A DNA stretch of 64,000 nucleotides from a virus. The notes under the pieces are model-generated. The model searched no databases and was not told the DNA's origin. It worked only from the letters and a program-made list of their open reading frames with translations. This document shows positions 3,660 through 33,004 of this stretch, one piece after another (within the stretch, counting starts at the first letter, position 1; every line of letters begins with the position of its first letter). The translations under genes and the position numbers were made by a program. The stretch is taken from positions 31,499 through 95,498 of IMG/VR virus record IMGVR_UViG_3300037493_005685; one strand, 5' to 3'.

Positions 3660-4110
3660 TGTAGGTAAAATTACCAATCAAACCACCCGTAAGAGCGCCA
3701 CCTGCTGCGCCAGCTAAGCCACCTGCGCCAGCTCCGCGAACACGCGACATACCAAGCGGCTTAGACAGTGCAAGACCACCAAGAACACCCGCACCAGCAC
3801 CAATAGGTAGTCCCCACGTAAGGCCCTTAAGCTGGCCTCTATAACCGCGAGCTATCTCAGCGTCAAACTCAGCCTTAGTCATGCCAGTCTGTTGCTTGAG
3901 ATACCTATCCTCGAACTCGGCGTCTGACATCGCTATCTTCTCGAGCACAGTGTCAGCAATCTCAGCAGCAGTTTTGTTCATTTTATGCTCCGGTAACACC
4001 TTGATGTCAGGCGTATGCTCAGCCCAACGCTCTGCTGTGCCTCTGGGCAGCTCACCTTTTGATTCAGCCGAGAACATAAAGCGCTGTTGGGCTTTGGATT
4101 TGAATGGCAT
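3652..4110 (-). CDS. putative internal virion protein with Gly-zipper segments
   Basis: Start reassigned to MPFKSKAQQRF (TATACT-N6-ATG); KTAAEIADTVLEKIA motif; GxxxG-rich C-terminus. Confidence 0.7.
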   Translation of the reverse strand: MPFKSKAQQRFMFSAESKGELPRGTAERWAEHTPDIKVLPEHKMNKTAAEIADTVLEKIAMSDAEFEDRYLKQQTGMTKAEFDAEIARGYRGQLKGLTWGLPIGAGAGVLGGLALSKPLGMSRVRGAGAGGLAGAAGGALTGGLIGNFTYNG

Positions 4111-18265: not shown

Positions 18266-19081
18266 CTACGGTGCGATACTTCCCTCACAACACGTCTGCC
18301 CATCCGGGCAGGCACCAGGAAGTATGACAGCCATCCAACCGAGACAACTATTTACACAACCCCATGCTCTTTTGGGGTCCAGGAGTATAGGCCGCATATC
18401 CTCCCCACAATCCAAGTCCGTCTCCCACCCCGTATCAGATGACCACAAGGGTGGGTCGAGACACTGACCGAATGCGTCCCACGACGACCCGTCGTTACAG
18501 GTGTCAGGGCCGGTGTCTGTGTCCGCCGTATCCGTGCCGGGGTCGCTGCCCGTATCGACTGTGTCGGTGCCGGGGTCGCTGCCCGTATCGATGGCAGGTC
18601 CGGTGTCTAAGCCAGTGTCCGTTTCGATGGCAGGTCCGGTGTCCGTGCTGGAACCGGTGTCTGTTTCTACGGCAGGTCCGGTGTCTAAGCCAGTGTCAGT
18701 CTCTATGGCAGGGCCGGTATCCATGCTGGAACCGGTGTCAGTTTCGATGGCAGGGCCGGTATCCATGCTGGAACCGGTGTCAGTTTCGATGGCAGGGCCG
18801 GTGTCCATGTTGGAACCGGTGTCTGTTTCGATAGCAGGGCCGGTGTCCATGTTGGAACCGGTGTCAGTTTCGATGGCAGGGCCGGTGTCCATGTTGGAAC
18901 CGGTGTCTGTTTCGATAGCAGGGCCGGTGTCAGCTGCCGTGTAAGAGGGGTAGTACGGGCTCTTCTTGCCCGTGTCGGTGGCAGGGATAGTGTCCACACT
19001 AGTGTCAGAGCCCGAGGGCTCGTCTACCAGCAAGGAACAGCCCATAAAGAACGCACAAAACACGATTGCTAGAGTTTTCAT
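18266..19081 (-). CDS. lipoprotein with Asp-Thr-Gly tandem repeats and Cys-rich C-terminal domain
   Basis: MKTLAIVFCAFFMG-C lipobox-like signal; AGGAGG SD; DTGPAIETDTGSxM repeats. Confidence 0.8.
   Translation of the reverse strand: MKTLAIVFCAFFMGCSLLVDEPSGSDTSVDTIPATDTGKKSPYYPSYTAADTGPAIETDTGSNMDTGPAIETDTGSNMDTGPAIETDTGSNMDTGPAIETDTGSSMDTGPAIETDTGSSMDTGPAIETDTGLDTGPAVETDTGSSTDTGPAIETDTGLDTGPAIDTGSDPGTDTVDTGSDPGTDTADTDTGPDTCNDGSSWDAFGQCLDPPLWSSDTGWETDLDCGEDMRPILLDPKRAWGCVNSCLGWMAVILPGACPDGQTCCEGSIAP
18502..18932 (-). repeat. coding tandem repeat, 42-nt (14-aa) unit with 36-nt variants
   Basis: About 9 copies of DTGPA(I/V)(E)TDTG. Confidence 0.9.
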
Positions 19082-19183
19082 GACTTGGCCTCCTTAAAGG
19101 CTGGGTTGGTTGTACTACTAGCTTATACCCAATAAGCTCCTCTAAACCTCAAAAGCAAAAGGGGAAGACCCCCTTTATACCCC

Positions 19184-19240
19184 TCATGCCAGCTTATCCA
19201 GCTGGAGCATGAGGAGTACTAGCGCACATGCTGTCAGCAT
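19184..19240 (-). CDS. 18-aa hydrophobic peptide (MLTACALVLLMLQLDKLA)
   Basis: AAGGAGG SD; GGTATAAG motif at 19276-19283; downstream terminator-like hairpin. Confidence 0.45.
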   Translation of the reverse strand: MLTACALVLLMLQLDKLA

Positions 19241-19268
19241 GGGTGCCTCCTTGATGTTAAAGAGTTGT

Positions 19269-22200
19269 CTACTTTCTTATACCCTTAATAACCAGCGGTT
19301 CTCGAGCAAACCCCAACAGCGCATGAAACGCCACGTCGTTTTTATGTACCCAACCGCCTATTAGGCAGTCAAGTCGTAATCCTGGCTTTGCTAGGTTTTT
19401 GGGCAGAAGGAAGATATCCATAAAGATGTCACGCTTTTCCCACCTCAGGTACATGTTTCCTGTTCCTTAGCTAGGTCCCACAGCTTCAGGTACGCGTAGA
19501 AACGACAGTGATACAGCGCATCTACAGGTAGAACTCTTTCTTTACCCCAATCAGTAACCATCTCGAATATGCGGCGGTTTATTCGCAAGGTACCTCCTCT
19601 GTGCGTTTAGCAGTATCCTGAATGTCTGGGTCTTGAATATGTACAGGTCTTGCATGAAGGGCCTGGAGCCTGATGTATGCAGGTGCTTTATGTAAGTGCA
19701 GATGAGCCGAAACGAGCCTTTATCCAGCATCTTATCTTGAGTCCTTTTACATACAGCCTAGAGAATTCGTCACGCTTTAGGCCGTACATGTTGAGCTCCA
19801 CATTGGTAGCCATGCCCCGATGGGCGTAGCCGCTTATAACGGCAAAGATGTAGGGGCTAATTAGCATGTTGAAGCGAGAATGAAGCGTGCTGGTGTAATA
19901 GACGTAGAAAGGAGTTTACTATTACTCCATTAATGTTTATCCCTACCGACCTCCTGTGAATGTACCTTCTATCAGCCCTGTCGGCTATTAGCCAAAACGT
20001 TCCTTGTGAGATTTTCATTATATCACCACCTTAAGGCGTCGCAGTATCCAGAGAAAGGGCCAGGTTCTAGCTGCGTAGGTGGACCTTTGGATTCCTTTGT
20101 CTGGATAGTGCCGCTGGAATGAGCCTTTATTAACGTACATCTTGCACACCCACACTGCTCAACCTGGAGCCAATAGCGTAATTGTTCATATGGAAACACC
20201 CTGCGCTTGAAGTTCTCCTCAATATTCACGCCCTCCCCGGCCAGCTTAAAGCTGAATTTGTTTATGAGCATCTACCACTCCAACATCAAAGGCCACGCCC
20301 ACGGCTCTAGCCCGTCTCTGTCCGCGTAGTGGTCCATTAAGATGATTATGTTGATTGTCTTGAAGAACCAGACATCCTGCCTGTTCCTTCTAGGGTTGTG
20401 TAAATACTTGTGAACTACGTGGAAGGCGTCTTCTTTGGGGGACATCAGTACCTCCTGAGGTCAATCCCAGGCAACCACTCGAGGTGTTCTGGCGTTTGCT
20501 CCATTAACCACAAACCCAAACAACCCCACGGCCCTTGTATCTCCAGCCCCCTCTGCCTCTCAAGCAGCATTACGGCGTATTCCAGCCATGCCTCCCTCCT
20601 TGTCTCAGCGCCTTCGCCGGTTAAGGATGTAATCAATACTTGCAATTCCCCCAAGTTCTCTTTTACGTAGTAGCTCATTGTACAATAATTCTAACCTAGT
20701 TGAGCAGCGGTCGAAGTAGGCGAGCATAGCCCACCTATTCTCACCCATCTGAGAGCCATCTTTAACGCCGTAGAGCATGCCCCACATCATGGGGCTTGGT
20801 TTTTCCCACATATTTCACCTTAAGCGCTCTCGTATGTGTCTTGTTTCCAGCCGCATATACTTAAGCTTCAAAGCTTTTATTACGTCTTCCCAGTGGAAGA
20901 CCATGCCTATACTCACATGCGCGCTAGGTGAGAAGTAGTTACGCTTGTAGAGCAAGCGCATATTATATACAGCCTCATCTGTGAAGTACATGGCTTACCT
21001 CCCAAACCAAATTGGATGTGGGTGAACGTACATTTTCGCTAGCTCTCTGGCTGCTTCTCGGGTGTTGTAGGGGATTACCCCCACAAAGTAATCAAACACT
21101 TCTGTACTTTGTCTTTTAAATACCTCGCGCCTGTTCAGTCGCATGGCCCGGACGTGCAGGACTGGGCGGATGTTGCTTATTCGCATATTGCTCCCTCATC
21201 AGCGAAGCCCCCTCTAGTATGAACCAACGTTCAAACATACCGTGGTGGCTGAGGTCCCAATAAGACGCAGAGATTAGTCCTATCCGCGCCTTAGCGTAGT
21301 AGTCTACATCGAGCATGCCCCTTCATTGCCTCCTTAAATGTCATTCTTATGTAAAAGCGGCTACACGCAGTCTGCATCCACTCATGGTCCTGTATTACAT
21401 GCTGCTGAACTGCGACCCTAAACATCCGCATAGTTTCTGAGTACATCATAAATCTCCCAGAAGTCCTTGCGCTTTTGGCGGTACATCCATGAGTGGCCAG
21501 CGTAACTAGGGTTAAAGACTACTTGGCGCTTAAAGAACGTTCCGTAGAACTTAAAGATGTTCCGGCGAAAGTCTTTGTTACATATCACGGCAGCGCTCCG
21601 GGTAGGAGACCCCATACCTAGCCCAGCTATAGAGGCTCCTTATGTTAATAACGCGTCTTTCAAATTGAAAGTTTAGTTCCCATATGTACTCTGCAGGTGT
21701 TATAGGCATAGGCGCATTGCGAATTGTTTCTGCTAACAGGTGATGCACGGATATTTCTCCTTCAGGATTCTAATCCAGGTAGTAAAGTACTGCCGCCTGT
21801 CTACCTTGGCTACGTCTAGGTGGTGGCGGGCGTACACGAAGGCGGGTATGGAGGCGCATATGATTCTAAGACGGTGTTTCTTTCCGATGGTGCCATACAT
21901 GCAGGTTACTCCATACCGCTCTTTTTGTGGGGTATATGCGGGCTAACGGTATGTCTAGGTACACGGTACCCATGTACTTGACGTAATACCTAAACAGGCT
22001 AGACGTAGCGGTTAACATTTTTGTATCTGTTTCTGCCTTAGGCGCATGCTTTCTCGGAAGTAGTAGCCGATGTGCCAGTCGAAGCCACTTAGGTTTTCGC
22101 TGAACACCCAGGGGCCAAACTCAATCCGCGCATAGTCGAGGTATAGCGCATCCTCCACACACCCAAAGCAGTATTTATGGTTGAATTGCCGTAAGTAGAA

Positions 22201-23332
22201 GCTCATGGAAGTCGCGCTCCTTTACGCGTAGGTATTCTTCTAGGTAGAAAAACGGGTCAAAGTTCCAGAACGACCTGTGGTTACCTAGGCACATATTGAT
22301 TACTTGGATGATTTGGCGTAGGTCTGACTTGTTCATAGCCGTATAAACTCTGCAAACATAAGCCGGTTGTACTCGACTAGTTTGTTCATTATGTGCCTCC
22401 TCGTAGTAAAGGTATGCCAGTCGTCGTTAACGTCGCTGATTAGGTTTGTTATCAAGGTGAACTTTCCCATACATTTCCCTGTAAGTTTGAGCATCTCCAC
22501 ACTCCTGCGTGAAATTTTAGGAACCCAATGTTGCGAAAGTAGGCTGTGCGGTCATGAGCCCAGCGGAGGTCATTAGCGCGGACGTATGATATAACCATCA
22601 TCCAGCCATATTGATGGACTTTTAACATAGAGTTGGTGCCACCTCTGTATTTTTAGAGTGCGCAGGTCGTTCATACCGCGCACAGCCCATATACGAGCAT
22701 TATCGCGTACGTCGTCTAAAACAGACGCCCATATTTGTTTGTAGTTAATCATGCTTGAAATGTAGCCTCATGACCTCTCTTTCGTACTTCATTCTTTTTA
22801 TTGCGAGATCATTGTTGCCGTAACTCAAATGCTTAATAACCCACCATAGAGCTATACGTATTTCCCTTAATCGAGTCATGTAGAATGTGCCACCTTTCTG
22901 CGCGATTTATCCTAAGGCAACGTGCGCCATGCACGGCCCAGTTTTGTCCGAAGCTAAACTGGGTTCTGACATCATCTATTACGGACTCCCAGGTAGGTAT
23001 GTACCTAGTCATGGCACGCGTTGTCCCATATCAACTTCTTTCGCGAGTAGAGGTCCCGCATGTAGAATTCGGGGGGCACAATCTGCGCCCATACGCTGCT
23101 CCGCAAACTCCACCAAAGGGGCAGGGAATTTACCGTGGCCCTAAAATGGATGTGCAGGTGCTCGTGCATATAAACTCCGCAAGTTACTTATTCCTTGGTT
23201 AATAAGCCTTCGCCGTACATCTATAAGCACAAAGAAGTCACGAATAGCTATATGTCTGTACTCAGGCTTAAAGAAGATACTGCTCACCATTCCCGCTGTG
23301 CTGGCTATCCCACACTGTAAGGTCAGAAACAT
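19269..23332 (-). other. tandem array of about 27 overlapping micro-ORFs (40-82 aa)
   Basis: Manual translation gives near gap-free overlapping ORFs (starts incl. 23332, 23169, 23012, 22879, 22752, 22628, 22206, 21748, 21615, 21316, 21186, 20991, 20811, 20678, 20445, 20271, 20140, 20018, 19867, 19730, 19588, 19454). Confidence 0.7.
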
Positions 23333-23622
23333 CCCAGTCTACCAGCCAGAAAGTAAGCCATAGCCATAATACACACCATGTTGATTACTAACATAACGGT
23401 GTCGAAGATGGCATAACGGCGATGCTTCATCAGACCGTGTATGCGGCGCAGTAGCTCTTCACGCTGGTCGTCATCCAACAAGGCGCCTTCTTCGTGGTAA
23501 ATACGGCAGCCCTCCTCGAAAAGTTCAATACCGCGCGTGTTGTGCTTGAGATGCTTGATTCCTATCTTCAAGAAATAAGCATTAAAGACGATAACAAGAA
23601 CGTTACCTATGATGGGCCACAT
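23323..23622 (-). CDS. small membrane protein (2 TM), first gene of micro-ORF operon
   Basis: AAGGAG SD; GGTAAAAG motif at 23654-23661. Confidence 0.75.
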   Translation of the reverse strand: MWPIIGNVLVIVFNAYFLKIGIKHLKHNTRGIELFEEGCRIYHEEGALLDDDQREELLRRIHGLMKHRRYAIFDTVMLVINMVCIMAMAYFLAGRLGCF

Positions 23623-23772
23623 TGTTTTCTCCTTTGTTTGGGTTTGTTACCCACTTTTACCAAGTAAATAACTCAGATTGTAAGAGGTACTTGACTCCCC
23701 AATCCCCCTTAAGCTATGCTCCCCTTGCTGTTCGGTTTACACAACCACTACAACGAAAGGAGCCAAACAGCC

Positions 23773-24258
23773 ATGCGTCACTACCATATCGATTGGGATG
23801 AAATCACCGGTAATTTTGACCAGGAACAAGCAGCGAGCGGCCTCTGGGCAATCTGCGATGCCCTCCAAAAGATTGAGACGGTCTATAACTCCGACACCGA
23901 GTTAAAGGGCCTCAATCTCCCACTGTATTCGTTTGTGAATACCTCCTACAGCTTAGACACTGAAAAAGGTGCAGCCCGCATTTGCTGTGGCTGGAAGACA
24001 GCTGTACTTCCTCTCAAAAAGATAGGGGTGCTTCAAGAAGTCATACCTTGTCACCGAGCACACGCGGTTACTACAGCGGTCTTAAAGGCAGAGAACGCAA
24101 AGCTCGATAACTCAGAGGCGAGCTCCACAGACAAATACAATCTTCAGCTGCGCCACATCTCTATCTCGCTGGAACATGGACTCGGTAATTACGAGGTAAT
24201 CACCACCTACGTCAGTTACCGAAGCCTCGAAGCCGCCTGGCTCCTCGCTATCCGCTAA
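23773..24258 (+). CDS. hypothetical protein
   Basis: AAGGAG SD before ATG 23773. Confidence 0.7.
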   Translation: MRHYHIDWDEITGNFDQEQAASGLWAICDALQKIETVYNSDTELKGLNLPLYSFVNTSYSLDTEKGAARICCGWKTAVLPLKKIGVLQEVIPCHRAHAVTTAVLKAENAKLDNSEASSTDKYNLQLRHISISLEHGLGNYEVITTYVSYRSLEAAWLLAIR

Positions 24259-24322
24259 CCAAAAGAAAACCCCAACAGCATTAGTGCCATTGGGGCCTTC
24301 TAGGCTACATACGAGAGGCCAA

Positions 24323-24406
24323 TACGAGGAGCGGGGGTCGAACCCGCACGCCTTTACAGGCAAGAGATCTTAAATCTCCTGAGACTTCCAATTCCTCCAT
24401 CCTCGC
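24323..24406 (-). tRNA. tRNA-Leu (anticodon TAA)
   Basis: GCGAGGA/TCCTCGT acceptor, GGAGA-TTTAAGA-TCTCT anticodon arm, long variable arm, GCGGG-TTCGACC-CCCGC T arm; CCA not encoded. Confidence 0.9.
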
Positions 24407-24505
24407 AAAAACCCCAACAACCCCCGCACCGCTCAAAGTAAAGGGGCCATTGGAGCAAGCAGTTTAGTGCGTCATACTCAGGACGCTTGACCAGCTGCCA
24501 ACTGG

Positions 24506-24982: not shown

Positions 24983-25012
24983 GGTGTCTCCTTTGATTGT
25001 CCATTACTTTAG

Positions 25013-25354
25013 TGGAGCTGCCGGTAATCGAAACCGGGTCCGATACATCGTCTTCTACACCCTCGTCCACACGCTTGGTGGCATCTCTCTTGGTACGCTA
25101 CCTGCCACGATAGCGTATCAGTTTTCTCTCGTATCTTAGCCAACCATACTGAGAGCCTTTGGTTGAAGCGCCCTGGTTAATTACGCCACGTCAGCCCCTA
25201 CAGGGGGAAGAGACTGGGTGACGGAGAACGGCTCACGCCGCTTTCAGGTACTCTTGCGGTTCGGCATTTGTACGTTGACACTTCTTTACCCAGTAAGCGT
25301 CATCTGGGGCGTGCGAGCATAACTTCAGTTGTACCGTCAAAACCTTTCAGCCCC
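25013..25354 (-). ncRNA. ssrA: tmRNA, tag peptide (A)AEPQEYLKAA*
   Basis: 5' GGGGCTGA, 3' GACCCGGTTTCGATTACCGGCAGCTCCA, G3:U pair; tag ORF 25233-25265 after AAAT resume context. Confidence 0.92.
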
Positions 25355-27117: not shown

Positions 27118-27446
27118 TACGCCCCCCTTTCTTTTGTCCTCCTCATGATGGTGTACAGCGACACCAACAAGTGCACCTGCTGCTCAAACACCCTATTTCT
27201 GTTTGGTTCTTTTTCCTCCCAAACCCGGACAGAAGAGTCCTCTATTACCTTCGATATATCGAACGTTGTATCCATTGAATTACGCCGTAACATCTCCATA
27301 GCGACACCCTTAGGCAACACTATCGACTTGTTTACGTCTGAGGACCGACAACAGCTACAGACGTCTGCCTTACCGATGAAGGTGTCCTCAGTTACCCAAA
27401 CGTTGTCACAGCGATTACAGCGGTAGAGGCGGTAGTCCCTGGCCAT
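27117..27446 (-). CDS. zinc-ribbon protein
   Basis: CNRC...CSCC. Confidence 0.65.
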   Translation of the reverse strand: MARDYRLYRCNRCDNVWVTEDTFIGKADVCSCCRSSDVNKSIVLPKGVAMEMLRRNSMDTTFDISKVIEDSSVRVWEEKEPNRNRVFEQQVHLLVSLYTIMRRTKERGA

Positions 27447-27843
27447 CGACCTTGGTTTCCTCCTCTGTCTGAGTTGCTTGTTCGACCGCGATAGCTCTCA
27501 GCCACCGCGCGATTTCTTTCAAAGGCGCGGTATCATCAGCTAGCTCCGCTGCAGCCACCGAGGCGCTGCAGAGGTCTAACCCCCTCTTTATGAGCTCGAT
27601 AACCTTTAGCTTGTTCTTGAGGGCTCCGTGCATGAGTCGGAACTCCCGGCGCAGCGGAAGCTCCGAAAGCTTTCTGGCGTTGGCGTGGTACACGGTCTTG
27701 TACGCCACGAGCTCTTTGCTGCCGCAGGTACAACCATCCTTTTCGTACCGCGCCATGGTGTCTTCTACGGAACGGTACACGCTTTCTTTTAGTACGCGCT
27801 TGCCACAGTCTAGACAGGTAATGACGATGTGGATGTACCTCAT
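27415..27843 (-). CDS. zinc-ribbon protein
   Basis: CLDC...CTCGS; ATGA overlap. Confidence 0.65.
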   Translation of the reverse strand: MRYIHIVITCLDCGKRVLKESVYRSVEDTMARYEKDGCTCGSKELVAYKTVYHANARKLSELPLRREFRLMHGALKNKLKVIELIKRGLDLCSASVAAAELADDTAPLKEIARWLRAIAVEQATQTEEETKVDGQGLPPLPL

Positions 27844-28955
27844 CTCTTAACCTTCTTCACGACCTTTACGTCGTAACCGAGGCTGAGCTCCTCTATCTCG
27901 ATAGGAGCTGTTGATGCTAGACGGAACATTTTGCACGCAGACATGTTGTGTGTCCCCAAGATACGCAGAGCGTCTTCCTGTGACCTAAACTCTTGCATAT
28001 ACGTAGTTGTCCATGAGCCACAGCTGCGCCCCTCAACGACAAGGAAGCGCTCGTGGATGGGGGTTTCGGTGACAACCTCTCCTAGTGGCTTTATGTATGT
28101 AAGCTTCCCATTCACTAGAATAAAGGAGACGCGGCAACTGGTACAGCGCCGTGGGGCGTCGGGGAAATTTCTGATTTTGTTCGACTCCTCAGTAGAGAAT
28201 TTGAGATGACAACCAGGGCACTCAAGACGATTATCCTCTTTCATGTCGCGCACGCACGTCTCACACAGGTAAAACTCCTTACCTGGAACGCGGTAGCGAT
28301 GTCCCTGCTGGGATTTAAAGCACACGCCACACGTGAATTTTGCGGGTTCAACCCTGGCAAAGGACATCACGGTGGGCCTGTCTTTCTTCAGGCTCTCTAG
28401 GCACCGATAACACACAAAGCCCTCTATGCCAGGGACTTTGTACGCGGTGACGTGGTCGCTCTCGCCACACTCAGAGCACGTGAAGTTGGCTGGCGCAGGC
28501 TTCTCCTCCTTCTTCCTGCAGCTAAAACACACCGGCTCAGCCCCACCCTTAACAGCCAGGGTGGTTTTGAACTTGCGGCCGCAGTTGACGCAGACCACGC
28601 GTTTGGGTACCTCGGCAACTGGTGACTTCGGCTGCCCTACCTGCAGCTCGTGGCAGCGGGGAATCTTGAGGCTTTCATAGAAGCGACAGCCCTTTACAAA
28701 GCTAGCTTCCCCTACGTTCATTTTCGTCTTTGCACATGTCTTACCTGACTTAGCCTTGGGTAAGAAGTGCAGGCACTTACCACACTCGTGTGCCACTTTC
28801 TTTTCCTTCCTTTTGCGCGCATAGAACATGCACGCATCCGAAGTCGGCATGGTGTTGTACCCAGGTGGCCTGGTGCACCTACCATCTCCTCCAGCTCCGG
28901 GTGTTGTTTGTTTGTGGGATTCGAAGAAGGTGCAGGAGCTGCAGCGTGCTGTCAT
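27840..28955 (-). CDS. multi zinc-finger protein
   Basis: Ten or more CxxC pairs in 371 aa. Confidence 0.75.
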   Translation of the reverse strand: MTARCSSCTFFESHKQTTPGAGGDGRCTRPPGYNTMPTSDACMFYARKRKEKKVAHECGKCLHFLPKAKSGKTCAKTKMNVGEASFVKGCRFYESLKIPRCHELQVGQPKSPVAEVPKRVVCVNCGRKFKTTLAVKGGAEPVCFSCRKKEEKPAPANFTCSECGESDHVTAYKVPGIEGFVCYRCLESLKKDRPTVMSFARVEPAKFTCGVCFKSQQGHRYRVPGKEFYLCETCVRDMKEDNRLECPGCHLKFSTEESNKIRNFPDAPRRCTSCRVSFILVNGKLTYIKPLGEVVTETPIHERFLVVEGRSCGSWTTTYMQEFRSQEDALRILGTHNMSACKMFRLASTAPIEIEELSLGYDVKVVKKVKR

Positions 28956-29542
28956 GGCTTCTCCGCTGGCTTCTTAACCCCAGTGTTAATAACCCGGCAC
29001 TTCCATTCTCCAAACGAGAACGGCCGAATGCACTCGGATGTCTCACCCGTCACAGGGTTGGAGATGAGCTTGACGTCCTTGTCCTGTGTCATGGCGAAGG
29101 CGATGTCGTCGTTGGCGCAGCCCTTAAAGCTCATGAACACGCCTCCTATCACTACCGCCGCAATTGCTACGATGATCATGAGCTCGATGAGGGTGAAACC
29201 TCTCTCACCTTCCACACAGCGCTGTACTTCCGCCTGCCTCTTTCCCTTCTCAGTCAATTTCCACACCGTTATCTCCACGCCGTGGGACCCCTTCCTTGAC
29301 CCGCACTCACAAATCAAACCTTGGTCTATGAGTTCTGCCACGCGTGGTCGGATAGAGTGTTCCTGTATGCGCGGATTATCGTTGTACAGGTCTTCATTCG
29401 TCGCGCCTTTATCTCCTGCGCGGACGAACGTGTTAAACGCAATTTGCCTTAACCTCGGCCGGTGGGTCTGTATTGCCGCTGCCCCCGAGTGGCTAGCGGT
29501 GTTGTCTGTATTTCTCACTGGAACTTTTGTTTCGTCTCTCAT
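28952..29542 (-). CDS. winged-HTH-like domain fused to type IV prepilin-like segment
   Basis: RPRVAELIDQGLI...VWKLT then RG/FTLIELMIIVAIAAVVIGG; GGAGG SD. Confidence 0.7.
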   Translation of the reverse strand: MRDETKVPVRNTDNTASHSGAAAIQTHRPRLRQIAFNTFVRAGDKGATNEDLYNDNPRIQEHSIRPRVAELIDQGLICECGSRKGSHGVEITVWKLTEKGKRQAEVQRCVEGERGFTLIELMIIVAIAAVVIGGVFMSFKGCANDDIAFAMTQDKDVKLISNPVTGETSECIRPFSFGEWKCRVINTGVKKPAEKP

Positions 29543-29766
29543 GTTGCCTCCTCCACATCGTTTTCGATGTTCTGCACGCTCTCATTGAAGCGCTTTACTG
29601 CCTCGTCAGCATCCTCTTCATCGACATCAATGTATCTGGCGCTGAGCAGCTGCGAGGATGCCTTGCGGTATCCCCGTAGCGCGTTAATAACTTGTACGAC
29701 CGCGAAGCGATTACCCGTCAGGGCACGGCGCTCGAGGTCCTGGAGGGGTGTACGTTCTTCAGGCAT
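29539..29766 (-). CDS. hypothetical protein
   Basis: 75 aa; AAGGAG SD. Confidence 0.65.
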   Translation of the reverse strand: MPEERTPLQDLERRALTGNRFAVVQVINALRGYRKASSQLLSARYIDVDEEDADEAVKRFNESVQNIENDVEEAT

Positions 29767-29769
29767 TCT

Positions 29770-30078
29770 TTACTCCTTGCAGTCAGCGGCGACCTCGCGC
29801 CAATTGTGGATGTCGTCTCTTTCGTCAGTAAGCACCTCTAGGTGCCTGCTTACTTCCTCCATATGTGACCCGTTTACACTCTCGTCCTTTATGCGCTTCC
29901 AGATGATGTGACACCGGGAGTTCACCACGCCCTCGTAGTGGCTGTCGTTGAACTGCACCACAAACCACGTGTACACCGTAATGGCGGCGGCTAGAGCGCA
30001 CAGCCAACCAATAATGACGACGGGGGAGAGTGACGGGCGGACGTAGAGAGGGAGGAACACCTTCTCGTCTTCTGTCAT
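29770..30078 (-). CDS. membrane-anchored hypothetical protein
   Basis: One TM; ATGA overlap. Confidence 0.65.
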   Translation of the reverse strand: MTEDEKVFLPLYVRPSLSPVVIIGWLCALAAAITVYTWFVVQFNDSHYEGVVNSRCHIIWKRIKDESVNGSHMEEVSRHLEVLTDERDDIHNWREVAADCKE

Positions 30079-30293
30079 GGCTTTTCTTTCTTCCTTATGA
30101 GTTTTTCGAGACGCGCAATCTCCATTTTTATTAGGCGAGCTCGATTAAGATATCCGGTTTGAGATAGTTTCAAAGAATCGATGTCTCGTTGTACCCGGTT
30201 AACCTCTCCCTCAGCCACGGCTAAACGCCTTCTCTCAGCGATTAGGGCGCGCTCGGGGTCCTCGTCGTTGGAGTGTACTTTGGGCTCCTTCAT
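30075..30293 (-). CDS. coiled-coil hypothetical protein
   Basis: TAATG overlap, GGAG SD. Confidence 0.6.
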   Translation of the reverse strand: MKEPKVHSNDEDPERALIAERRRLAVAEGEVNRVQRDIDSLKLSQTGYLNRARLIKMEIARLEKLIRKKEKP

Positions 30294-30679
30294 TACTTCT
30301 CCTTCGCCATCGCCGAAAGCTCGTTTACACCCTTCACGCACTTGTTGGCGAGCTCTACGTAAATGGCACACCTAATCCCGCATGCTTCCTGTACCCAGTT
30401 GTTTTGCTTCTCTTCGCACTCCTTGAGGCGCTTATCCCAAACGCCCCTGGAGACCTTAGAGAGGACTAAGCAGTCTTGCTTATCCCGCGTCTGCGTCTTT
30501 ACTAGCGCGTTCAGGCTGTCGTTGCTCTTTTGCATCTCGGCTACGCGCGCCTGCAGTGCGATGTTCTCTTCTTTAATGCGTCCGTAGTCAGCATTCTTAG
30601 CTAGCATCAAGATTCCTATTACTAATAACGTAACAATCTCGACGGTGAGAAGTGCCACCATTGGTGTGGTCTTGTTCAC
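30293..30679 (-). CDS. membrane-anchored coiled-coil protein
   Basis: N-terminal TM followed by coiled coil. Confidence 0.65.
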   Translation of the reverse strand: MNKTTPMVALLTVEIVTLLVIGILMLAKNADYGRIKEENIALQARVAEMQKSNDSLNALVKTQTRDKQDCLVLSKVSRGVWDKRLKECEEKQNNWVQEACGIRCAIYVELANKCVKGVNELSAMAKEK

Positions 30680-31120
30680 GGATTCTCCTTTGCTCTATGC
30701 AGCAGCATCGCCCGCATGGCTTGCCACTCGTAGTTTCTATAGCCGCTGTCCACGTAGATGCGCGTCTCATTCATCCTGTGGCTATTGGCTGTGATATAGG
30801 CTTCTGCTGCGGCCTCAGTGAAGAACGGCTGAACGAACTCCCACTGGTCCACGTAGCCGGTGCGGTGGTACTTCGAGGGGACCGTAAAGGTTTCCTGATA
30901 CATCTCCTCGAGCCGGGCGCGCTCCTCGGCCTCTACTTCCTGGCAGTCATTCTCCTCATCCAACCAGACGACCTCGCTGTCGTCCACGATGTCGGGGGTC
31001 CACGCCGTATAAGCGCTTTTTCTGCTGAACCAGATAAATGGGCTCAGCGGTGCAGCGGTTGTCCTGGCCCACTATGTCTTTGGCGGACTGGGCGAGGACT
31101 TCTCTGTAGTCGGTTATCAC
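30676..31120 (-). pseudogene. Ead/Ea22-like phage protein split by a +1 frameshift at C5 run (30994-30998)
   Basis: QDNRCTAEPIYLVQQKKRLYGVDP continues in +1 frame as DIVDDSEVVW...QWEFVQPFFTE...RIYVDSGYRNYEW. Confidence 0.6.
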
Positions 31121-31347
31121 TTGAGCTCCTTTAGGTTGTACGTCTCCACCCCCGCGTCTTCCTTGGTGCGGTACTGCATGGACCACCTCGAACCGAAGCG
31201 GTTAAACATCTCTTCACGGGCCGCATCAAAGGTCCCGTGGATTACGCAGTAACGTCCTGCGTACGCCTGGCCGCACCCGAAGGTGAATATCCAGTCCTGG
31301 GCTTCTTCTGTTTCGGGTACGAGCTCGACCTGTGTGTTACTTGACAT
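31117..31347 (-). CDS. hypothetical phage protein (WIFTFGCGQ motif)
   Basis: 76 aa; AGGAG SD. Confidence 0.7.
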   Translation of the reverse strand: MSSNTQVELVPETEEAQDWIFTFGCGQAYAGRYCVIHGTFDAAREEMFNRFGSRWSMQYRTKEDAGVETYNLKELK

Positions 31348-31711
31348 TCATGTCTCCTATTTCGGTTGTGGTCTTTCCGTACTTACGGATGAGACCGTCT
31401 GTTGTGGCAATTTCGATACGTAGCTTCAGCTCAAGCTCTTGTACCTTATACGCCATGCGTTTGTGCTCGGCCTTACGCGAGACCCTAGCAGCCCAAGCCA
31501 GCATCTCGTGCGTCGCGTTTTCTTGGGTGCTTGTGCGGCCACGCATGTTGGCGAATGCCCGCTGGCACCGCTTGCACATTAGGGGCTGTTCTACCTTTCC
31601 TTTGATGTCGTACTCCTTGAGTATCCAGTGGTCCCACACGGGCATGAACCCTGCGGCATCTTTGCAGATGCAGCACTTGTGACAATCTCTGAGGGGTTTA
31701 TCTGTGTTCAT
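31337..31711 (-). CDS. zinc-binding hypothetical protein
   Basis: CCIC...CKRC; ATGA overlap. Confidence 0.6.
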   Translation of the reverse strand: MNTDKPLRDCHKCCICKDAAGFMPVWDHWILKEYDIKGKVEQPLMCKRCQRAFANMRGRTSTQENATHEMLAWAARVSRKAEHKRMAYKVQELELKLRIEIATTDGLIRKYGKTTTEIGDMNVK

Positions 31712-32022
31712 TTTGTTTCTTCCCACACCCAATCACCTTGTCGCGCTATGTTCCTGGCGTACCTGTGTTTAGTGGGATATTTAACATATTCAAGTCTGTA
31801 CGTGCCCCGTGCGCAGCTCCACCTCTCCCATACAACACACACGACGTCGTCTTCGTGACACACCTTTTCTGGCTTAACGCGAACGTCCGCTGCAACAAAA
31901 CCTCCAGCAGCGTTCATCGTGACTGTAATACTTTTTGTGTTTATCTTTTTTACGGTCCCACGCTCTAGGTTGTAGTCACGTAGCATGCAAACTCTGTCTC
32001 CTATTTGAAGCTGTTTCTTCAT
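31708..32022 (-). CDS. hypothetical protein (SH3/KOW-like N-terminus)
   Basis: LQIGDRV...GTVKKI; ATGA overlap. Confidence 0.6.
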   Translation of the reverse strand: MKKQLQIGDRVCMLRDYNLERGTVKKINTKSITVTMNAAGGFVAADVRVKPEKVCHEDDVVCVVWERWSCARGTYRLEYVKYPTKHRYARNIARQGDWVWEETK

Positions 32023-32300
32023 CTCTTCACCTTCAAGATGTTATTGACGTCCTCCACCGACATCGACTCATCCGGTGGAATACTGAGCTGGCACTCCCGC
32101 AGCCAGTCGTACACCTGACAGAATTCAGCGTAGAGGTCTGTGTTTCGTCTCTCGAGCTCATTGACCCTCTCCTGCAGCAGCCCGGCCTCAGCGCGTGTCT
32201 CGTTGATTCGATAGAGCATGAGGGCGTAAATGCCGAGCAGCGCGGCCCAGCAGACGACCATCCATGCCCAGCTGATAATGCGTTCTTTGCGGGTTCTCAT
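32019..32300 (-). CDS. membrane-anchored coiled-coil protein
   Basis: N-terminal TM; ATGA overlap. Confidence 0.65.
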   Translation of the reverse strand: MRTRKERIISWAWMVVCWAALLGIYALMLYRINETRAEAGLLQERVNELERRNTDLYAEFCQVYDWLRECQLSIPPDESMSVEDVNNILKVKR

Positions 32301-33004
32301 CCCAGCTCCTTCGCGCGGTTAGCAATATCTAGGTGCGTGTCCTCACGGTATAGACGCTTTGCTGTGGCTCGGGCTTCCCATCCTTGCTCATTTGCGCGCA
32401 TCATGAATACGCGTTTCCACTTAGGTGCGTATAAAAAGCACCACTCCCAAGGGTGGTATTCTCTCGGTTGGTAAAGCGTGAAGTGTGCGCACTTATCCAA
32501 CTGATTAGGGTAGTGTTGCCCTTTGTTGTTGTACGTGGTCGTACATGAAAATACGGCGGGTATTTTTTCACGGTGCGTATTTGTATAAACGAAGCAGTCA
32601 CAGAATTTAAGCTTACGCGGATTAACCAACTCAAGGTATACGCCGTTAGCCAACATAATGTCGCCCAACTCCTCTATGGCTTTTGCACGTTCTCTTCCAT
32701 CCATCATTCTCTTTTTTGGCGGAACAACGGTGTTATGTGTTCGTACTGGCGTTGTATCAAAGGTACTTTTAGCTGGTGGGACTATGAGTATAGGGACAGG
32801 AGCAGGGTTCTGGATAAGCACAGGCGGTGGAATATGGATAGGGGTAGGTGTGTTTGACTCAGGCTTATTCAAAGATATGACAAGACTTCTCTCGTCGAAT
32901 TCACCTGCTTTAAGGTCCATTGGGACCTTTAGTTCGTGTAGCTCGATTACCATCTCGAGCTCACTCTTGTCCATGAAGGCTGCGAACTCTGCTATCTTTT
33001 TCAT
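32297..33004 (-). CDS. hypothetical protein
   Basis: 235 aa; Pro-rich linker; ATGA overlap. Confidence 0.65.
   Translation of the reverse strand: MKKIAEFAAFMDKSELEMVIELHELKVPMDLKAGEFDERSLVISLNKPESNTPTPIHIPPPVLIQNPAPVPILIVPPAKSTFDTTPVRTHNTVVPPKKRMMDGRERAKAIEELGDIMLANGVYLELVNPRKLKFCDCFVYTNTHREKIPAVFSCTTTYNNKGQHYPNQLDKCAHFTLYQPREYHPWEWCFLYAPKWKRVFMMRANEQGWEARATAKRLYREDTHLDIANRAKELG

Follow-up and report, generated by a model that had tools for sequence, protein, structure and literature searches.

A tiled array of overlapping microgenes in a phage genome, a probable accessory operon of small host-directed proteins

We analysed a 64,000-nucleotide (nt) stretch of DNA from a large uncultured phage (the window), bases 31499–95498 of the 95.5-kb IMG/VR virus record IMGVR_UViG_3300037493_005685 (53% complete by CheckV), in which an array of very short open reading frames (ORFs) occupies the minus strand at window positions 19100–23700. 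Judged from the sequence, the array ORFs behave as real, individually initiated genes, and the array appears to be genuine: a microgene operon that is densely coding and has unusually extensive out-of-frame overlap. The explanation that we favour, and consider probable, is an accessory operon of small host-directed proteins that originated partly by local duplication; the function is proposed from genomic context and composition.

Results

A chain of short ORFs tiles one strand

The minus strand of 19100–23700 carries 27 ATG-started ORFs of at least 40 amino acids (aa), which cover 92% of the DNA. Shuffled sequences (mononucleotide, first-order and second-order Markov) hold 6–10 such ORFs with 22–36% coverage, and none of 300 reaches the observed values. 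The plus strand has 8 ORFs of at least 40 aa, which is the chance level. The total number of stop trinucleotides is at expectation on both strands, indicating that stop avoidance is confined to the frames that are used. An alternative genetic code was ruled out, as the units make use of all three stop codons and change frame from one to the next.

The chain starts with a 99-aa leader containing two putative transmembrane (TM) segments, followed by 26 ORFs of 44–82 aa (ATG, GTG or TTG starts) that run down to position 19269. ATG serves as the start codon in 25 of the 27 ORFs, and the mean gene size is 59 aa. About half of the junctions are out-of-frame overlaps of 20–74 nt (13 of 26 overlap by at least 20 nt), and 645 nt of the array (16%) are read in two frames. 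The original prediction had described a near gap-free chain of micro-ORFs with a periodicity of about 150 nt, headed by a two-TM leader and with the next ATG often formed within TAT-G or CAT-G. Its coordinates and translations agree with ours and its tiling lies far above shuffles; the start-to-start spacing has a mean of 152 nt and a median of 137 nt (coefficient of variation 0.20), two hydrophobic windows are seen in the leader, and the start context is TATG or CATG at 17 of 28 starts. We add two ORFs to that chain, the 40-aa m21b (start 20140) and an 18-aa ORF at 19184–19240.

A stretch that is gene-poor at the usual ORF thresholds could also be a non-coding array, made up of structured RNAs or regulatory repeats in which the ORFs arise incidentally. 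Rfam finds no family in the array stretch, the predicted folding of twenty 150-nt tiles is no stronger than that of shuffles (mean z about −0.3, range −2.9 to +1.8), and the array contains neither a DNA-level tandem repeat nor repeated inter-unit DNA. Together with the restriction of stop avoidance to the used frames, these results make a non-coding array extremely improbable.

Initiation signals and coding statistics resemble those of genes

Shine–Dalgarno (SD)/anti-SD duplex energies at the 27 array starts average −6.7 kcal/mol, compared with −6.1 at the first ATGs of the long ORFs of the phage and −3.3 at the other 94 ATGs of the array (p = 7e-6). In most units the best SD is the one at the first start codon, including units that overlap the previous ORF by 26–71 nt, and the SD sites are usually embedded within the 3′ end of the preceding gene. 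The GC fraction by codon position is 0.47/0.38/0.55 in the array, 0.56/0.45/0.55 in long genes, and 0.47/0.55/0.55 in spurious off-frame ORFs; thus, the low second-position GC of the array is as in long genes and unlike spurious ORFs. The codon-usage score of the array is intermediate, lying above that of spurious ORFs (p = 5e-4). Furthermore, ORF length has a standard deviation of 8.3 aa in the array versus 17.6 aa for chance ORFs (P = 0.005), and public collections contain gene calls for 11 of the 21 array units tested.

Successive ORFs on the same strand, with alternating frames and variable overlaps, resemble a gene riddled with frameshifts, and the array might be a wreck left by a single longer gene, or by a few such genes, with the overlapping ORFs as fragments. 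The near-uniform use of ATG starts, SDs as strong as those of real genes, and uniform lengths all argue against such a wreck. In addition, no fragment matches any family, long genes are intact in the rest of the contig, and a search without a length limit returned 59–62-aa homologues of unit m5 and nothing longer, with Met1 aligned. We therefore judge a broken gene highly improbable.

Two sub-blocks contain diverged paralogues

We refer to the leader as m0 and to the following units as m1–m26. The original prediction had proposed residual paralogy between 22833–23012 (m3) and 22573–22752 (m5), and this pair is indeed the sole significant pairwise match among the units (blastp E 2e-9, 42% identity). 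The differences between m3 and m5 number 22, 24 and 36 at codon positions 1, 2 and 3, with a proportion of nonsynonymous differences of 0.43 versus 0.80 for synonymous ones, a test that is suggestive at most because the alignment was made at the protein level.

A five-member m5 profile (A4) was compared with the real units plus 1350 shuffled decoys (1375 sequences). Units m6, m23 and m24 are among the six best non-members: m6 ranks second of the 1375 sequences (E 0.004 among 56 array ORFs), and m23 and m24 align in register with the profile. After these three units were added, no further real unit scored above the decoys.

A second signal lies at the N-termini, whose likeness had been pointed out in the original prediction. 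The motif M-x-[IV]-[NS]-x3-F is located near the starts of six consecutive units (20271, 20140, 20018, 19867, 19730 and 19588), one of which, m24, has a single-residue deletion in the motif. Of 6812 possible starts in the 95-kb contig, 6 carry the exact motif, and five of these are consecutive array starts; among 1350 decoys the motif appears in 2. Its codons vary by synonymous and non-adjacent changes (ATA/ATC/ATT; TCA/AGC), and there is no DNA similarity upstream; the conservation of the motif through such changes points to selection on the peptide. The (L/I/M)R(S/L)LY motifs proposed earlier also stand out, as [LIM]R[SLD]LY is found in 4 real ORFs versus 1 of 1350 shuffled decoys.

A short conserved N-terminal motif on small, basic, otherwise divergent bodies, in a plastic locus near tRNA genes, is reminiscent of T4 IPI–IPIII, small basic internal proteins with an N-terminal capsid-targeting sequence that are also encoded near tRNA genes. 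By this analogy the array products would be cargo packaged into the virion and injected, with the motif of about eight residues on m21–m25 as a capsid-targeting tag. Unlike in the T4 proteins, the motif is carried by 6 of 28 units rather than by every member, and no cleavage consensus of the L/I-x-E type follows it. The phage sequence examined yielded no identifiable prohead protease or capsid gene. Injected cargo is thus very unlikely.

Similarity does not extend to the array as a whole. A Gibbs search for an array-wide motif performed no better than shuffles (z = −0.05 and −1.0), a start-anchored ungapped comparison of the units gave z = 2.3, and similarities noticed by eye among many units were dropped as no better than shuffled controls. 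A single family for all units is not supported, since profile iteration stalls after m6, m23 and m24 and the Gibbs z lies between 0 and −1. At least two sub-blocks, m3–m6 and m21–m25, arose by local tandem duplication followed by strong divergence. The idea of an amplified library thus holds for parts of the array and is not supported for the array as 27 copies of one unit; likewise, profile comparison yields a signal for m3/m5, m6, m23 and m24 and none array-wide.

Unit m5 founds a rare family of small proteins

An exhaustive HMMER search of 1.84 billion representatives with an m3/m5 profile retrieved three more proteins (59, 62 and 61 aa long, with E-values of 3.5e-7, 6.9e-6 and 6.3e-5), which are 44–49% identical to m5 in a multiple alignment and 45–52% identical by BLASTP. 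Within the family Met1 is aligned, the ends are similar, and residues W8, D14, V15, W22, A23, G26, L30, W38, L41 and K44 are conserved with i, i+4, i+7 spacing. As hits of any length were admitted, m5 is a small protein in its own right and not a piece of a longer one. The AlphaFold2 (AF2) model of m5 contains one long helix (residues 4–42) at modest confidence, with a mean predicted local distance difference test score (pLDDT) of 64; this predicted long amphipathic helix is the sole usable model among the units. The AF2 model of m9 has a pLDDT of 40 and no fold. ESM Atlas neighbours of m5 score 0.90, inside the range reached by shuffled proteins, and the best E-value in a PDB profile search of the units is 0.27. 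A WXG100 (ESAT-6-like) hairpin was ruled out, as the family has 59–62 aa and not about 100, carries W-A-x-x-G and not W-x-G, and has no Pfam hit.

Two other units have near-identical copies elsewhere: m8 differs from protein P0008 at 2 of 53 residues, and m9 differs from P0010 at 3 of 64. Each of these proteins comes from a contig of 31,518 nt, as does P0002, a relative of m5 with 50% identity. Scans of viral contigs with m3, m9, P0002, P0003, P0006 and the leader, of metagenome contigs with the m3/m5 alignment (A2) and P0002, and of genome contigs with P0006 and m9 gave no match, nor did tblastn of m5 and P0002 against 50,697 phage records or word-index searches with m5 and m6.

The products are basic and rich in aromatic residues and arginine

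The array products contain 3.4% W, 5.3% Y, 5.1% F, 4.0% H and 9.9% R, compared with 1.2, 3.3, 3.6, 1.9 and 4.9% in the long genes of the phage, so that all five residues named in the original prediction are elevated. The median isoelectric point (pI) is 9.9, and W, Y, F and H together make up 12–27% of residues. Trp, Tyr and Arg are residues that typically form the hot spots of protein interfaces.

Gene-by-gene layout of the array

All features described in this section are on the minus strand. The presumed promoter region of the operon is the divergent intergenic segment upstream of the leader gene (23623–23715). The leader m0 (23323–23622, 99 aa, SD −8.7 kcal/mol) has hydrophobic segments at about residues 2–22 and 69–97. 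It is followed by m1 (23141–23332, 63 aa), with a hydrophobic N-terminus and an internal LRSLY, and by m2 (23005–23169, 54 aa), with an internal MRDLY.

The first paralogous block comprises m3 (59 aa), the paralogue of m5; m4 (22745–22879, 44 aa), which overlaps m3 by 47 nt and is a weak paralogue of m6, the SD AGGTGG being conserved between the two; m5 itself (59 aa), the founder of the 59–62-aa family with three outside homologues; and m6 (22452–22628, 58 aa, SD −10.3), which overlaps m5 by 56 nt and resembles the m5 family in its N-terminal half by the A4 profile.

The middle of the array consists of m7 (22333–22500, 53–55 aa, with the better SD, −9.7, at the ATG at 22494), m8 (22175–22336, 53 aa, homologue P0008), m9 (22012–22206, 64 aa, homologue P0010), m10 (21866–22018, 50 aa), m11 (21733–21900, 55 aa), m12 (21578–21748, 56 aa, GTG start, SD −8.8, internal IRSLY), m13 (21418–21615, 65 aa), m14 (21291–21449, 52 aa), m15 (21116–21316, 66 aa, SD −11.9, with a gene call in a public collection), m16 (20995–21186, 63 aa, overlapping m15 by 71 nt), m17 (20815–20991, 58 aa, SD −11.6, internal MRLLY), m18 (20605–20811, 68 aa), m19 (20445–20678, 77 aa, the sole clearly acidic unit, pI 4.7) and m20 (20272–20445, 57 aa, SD −11.7).

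The second block begins with m21 (20023–20271, 82 aa), the first of the six units with the N-terminal motif. Unit m21b (20018–20140, 40 aa) lies in another frame within the 3′ half of m21 and starts with the same motif. It is followed by m22 (19857–20018, 53 aa, SD −12.0), m23 (19688–19867, 59 aa), m24 (19551–19730, 59 aa) and m25 (19445–19588, 47 aa, TTG start, SD −12.9), all with the motif, which in m24 lacks one residue. The C-terminal half of m23 and the middle of m24 are the parts in register with the m5-family profile. Unit m26 (19269–19454, 61 aa) is the final unit of the earlier chain, and the 18-aa ORF, read from the sequence, is hydrophobic, has a perfect AAGGAGG SD, and lies between m26 and the terminator.

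Transcription signals

The block is closed after its last gene by an intrinsic-terminator-like hairpin with an 8-bp stem and a T-rich tail (19176–19158), which would mark the end of the operon. There is no strong terminator inside the array, where the hairpins are weak and of 5 bp. A promoter-like motif had been proposed at 23654; a sigma-70 consensus scan does not bear this out, finding no minus-strand promoter-like site there or inside the array. We presume a promoter in the divergent intergenic region upstream of the leader.

An exact 14-nt inverted repeat (ACAAACCCAAACAA and its complement) is present at 23634–23647, in the leader 5′ untranslated region, and at 20510–20523, inside m19 and 3.1 kb downstream; the chance expectation for such pairs in the stretch is about 0.04. 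At 24264–24301 on the minus strand, right after a tRNA-Leu gene, a strong 17-bp terminator-like hairpin parts the transfer-messenger RNA (tmRNA)/tRNA unit from the array operon.

The array lies in a variable region of the phage genome

Most large proteins of the phage have no Pfam or PHROG match; those that are recognisable are HNH and LAGLIDADG nucleases, helix-turn-helix proteins, a DinG-type helicase, a DHH protein, and tail-fibre-like repeats. Just upstream of the array, on the same strand, are a tmRNA (25010–25354) and the tRNA-Leu (24322–24407), and a neighbouring 158-aa protein is encoded by 26 viral contigs. The two closest of these, G001 and G002, have the tmRNA, the 158-aa gene, the tRNA-Leu and window positions 24–45 kb in common with our phage. 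Neither has a protein-level counterpart of window positions 3677–23716 (about 20 kb including the array), and array DNA was not found in five related phage records. In G002 a homologue of the leader (84035–84322, E 1e-6) is followed by two ordinary small genes and no array. Because the relatives share the flanks and not the array, the array occupies a turnover hot spot for accessory genes. The comparison with related phages, which the original prediction had proposed, thus finds the array absent from the closest relatives; together with the mosaic relationship to the 31.5-kb contig, this agrees with the rapid diversification claimed there. A diversity-generating retroelement was ruled out as a source of diversity, since the 95 kb contain no reverse transcriptase.

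A micro-ORF tiling detector, applied to related sequence totalling about 800 kb, picked out this array, one block in G001, and nothing else. The G001 block (27438–32314, minus strand, on the contig of L002) contains about 25 same-strand small genes of 55–120 aa with SDs, several long overlaps, and an ordinary acidic or neutral composition; it occupies another genome position and is unrelated in sequence to the array.

Several neighbouring genes were also recorded. Directly after the array terminator, a 271-aa protein (18266–19081, minus strand) has a lipoprotein-type signal, its hydrophobic N-terminus being followed by a Cys, and its gene contains a 42-nt repeat, present in about 7.7 copies, that encodes a DTGPAIETDTGS-like unit; the protein has no Pfam hit, and a similar repeat protein is found in L004 at about 18.8–19.3 kb. 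On the strand opposite to the array, a 180-aa gene (23716–24258) has a 42%-identical homologue in G001. In G002 (L003, 9630–10016), a 128-aa HNH-type zinc-finger ORF separates the tmRNA from the 158-aa gene, which is present there as a shortened copy; the ORF looks like a homing-endonuclease insertion and is absent from the window.

Discussion

The favoured explanation combines a two-TM gene and some 27–28 following genes for very small proteins into one accessory operon. The genes would be transcribed as one polycistronic mRNA, on which ribosomes would initiate at each SD and could also re-initiate once past the preceding stop codon, yielding about 28 small proteins jointly; as read from the DNA, the overlaps appear arranged so as to allow translational coupling. 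The products may be dispensable, fast-turning-over small binders of host or phage macromolecules. They could serve host takeover, anti-defence or exclusion, directed against components of the host or of competing phages. A small-binder role is the most likely one because the products are basic and rich in aromatic residues and Arg, the position is accessory, and conservation between strains is mosaic; homology searches point to no particular target.

Several observations weigh against this explanation. Codon usage in the array is well below that of the long genes of the phage (p = 3e-12). Outside relatives were sought for five units, and the yield was limited to the m5 family plus near-identical copies of two units, m8 and m9; the searches with m3 and m6 returned nothing, and a cluster look-up at ≥90% identity gave no member for 8 further units. 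For 26 units, PHROGs, Pfam, NCBIfam and PADLOC gave nothing below E 0.03, none of these being a library dedicated to anti-defence. Many phage anti-defence proteins are acidic DNA mimics, and the array products are basic. The mosaic comparison presumes that P0002, P0008 and P0010 lie on one 31,518-nt contig, which is probable, as both size and sources match. In that case a single close relative would hold m8 and m9 at about 95% identity and an m5-family member at 50%.

Much the same evidence could be taken as the mark of a young, largely neutral stretch of proto-genes or filler ORFs, translated and mostly meaningless, in which function is limited to a handful of units, for instance m5, m8 and m9; as fillers, the ORFs would keep ribosomes on a long early transcript. 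The codon-usage score between spurious ORFs and real genes, the lack of homologues found for most units and of any in family libraries, the lack of an array-wide motif, the failure of AF2 to give m9 a fold, and the complete absence of the array from close relatives are all consistent with such a stretch. Neutrality does not readily account for strong SDs at almost all starts, uniform ORF length, coding-like GC by codon position, an N-terminal motif conserved at the amino-acid level over six units, outside homologues of m5, or aromatic residues well above our own estimate for random sequence of equal base composition. We therefore consider a largely neutral stretch unlikely.

A further proposal, which is rather doubtful in our view, is a gene nursery that works by overprinting. 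Tandem duplication of a unit of about 130–165 nt, a length not a multiple of three, would place the ORF tail of each copy in another frame over the head of its neighbour; duplication and small indels would keep yielding new small binders from the same DNA, and arms-race selection would keep some binders and swap others between strains. The reading of 16% of the DNA in two frames, the nesting of m21b in m21 and the mosaic conservation between strains fit this proposal, and so do the start-to-start spacings, which in 24 of 27 cases are not divisible by three and in 15 are of the form 3n+1.

The accessory operon that we favour can be compared with known small-gene regions. The hyperplastic regions of T4-type phages consist of small ORFan genes that the phages can dispense with and that vary even among near-identical phages (Arbiol et al. 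2010, PMC2839356). Like these regions, the array is a run of small, homologue-less genes that neighbours tRNA genes; the region around it varies between close relatives, and its content changes by insertion, deletion and replacement. Unlike them, it has no promoter-early stem-loop (PeSL) cassettes, each a sigma-70-like promoter with a terminator hairpin, between genes in promoter, hairpin and repeat scans, and it is a single operon of smaller genes with out-of-frame overlaps of up to 74 nt. The array therefore resembles hyperplastic regions in behaviour and is not a member of them. In the 95 kb of this phage (53% complete), where most large proteins lack a Pfam or PHROG match, no T4-type hallmark gene was recognised, and a check of T4-superfamily membership gave a weak gp5 C-terminal match (E 0.009).

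Very many phage proteins of less than 100 aa are known, mostly of unknown function, and some of them modulate host or defence functions (PMC11323111). The array products share their size class, phage origin, orphan status and accessory location. They differ in that no unit matches a characterised protein, about 28 of them are encoded in one operon, and most are basic and rich in aromatic residues. The array thus behaves like known small-gene expansions, and its degree of overlap and its m5-like family set it apart.

About 4 kb of phage DNA that looks empty at normal ORF thresholds is probably dense with real genes. The exact sequences of 10 of the 21 units looked up are absent from a public protein collection, indicating that such regions are under-annotated. 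The array defines one new, rare protein family, the m5-like proteins of 59–62 aa, and, if translated, it would be an extreme example, for a DNA phage, of genes that overlap out of frame. It provides about 28 candidate small proteins that may act on the host.

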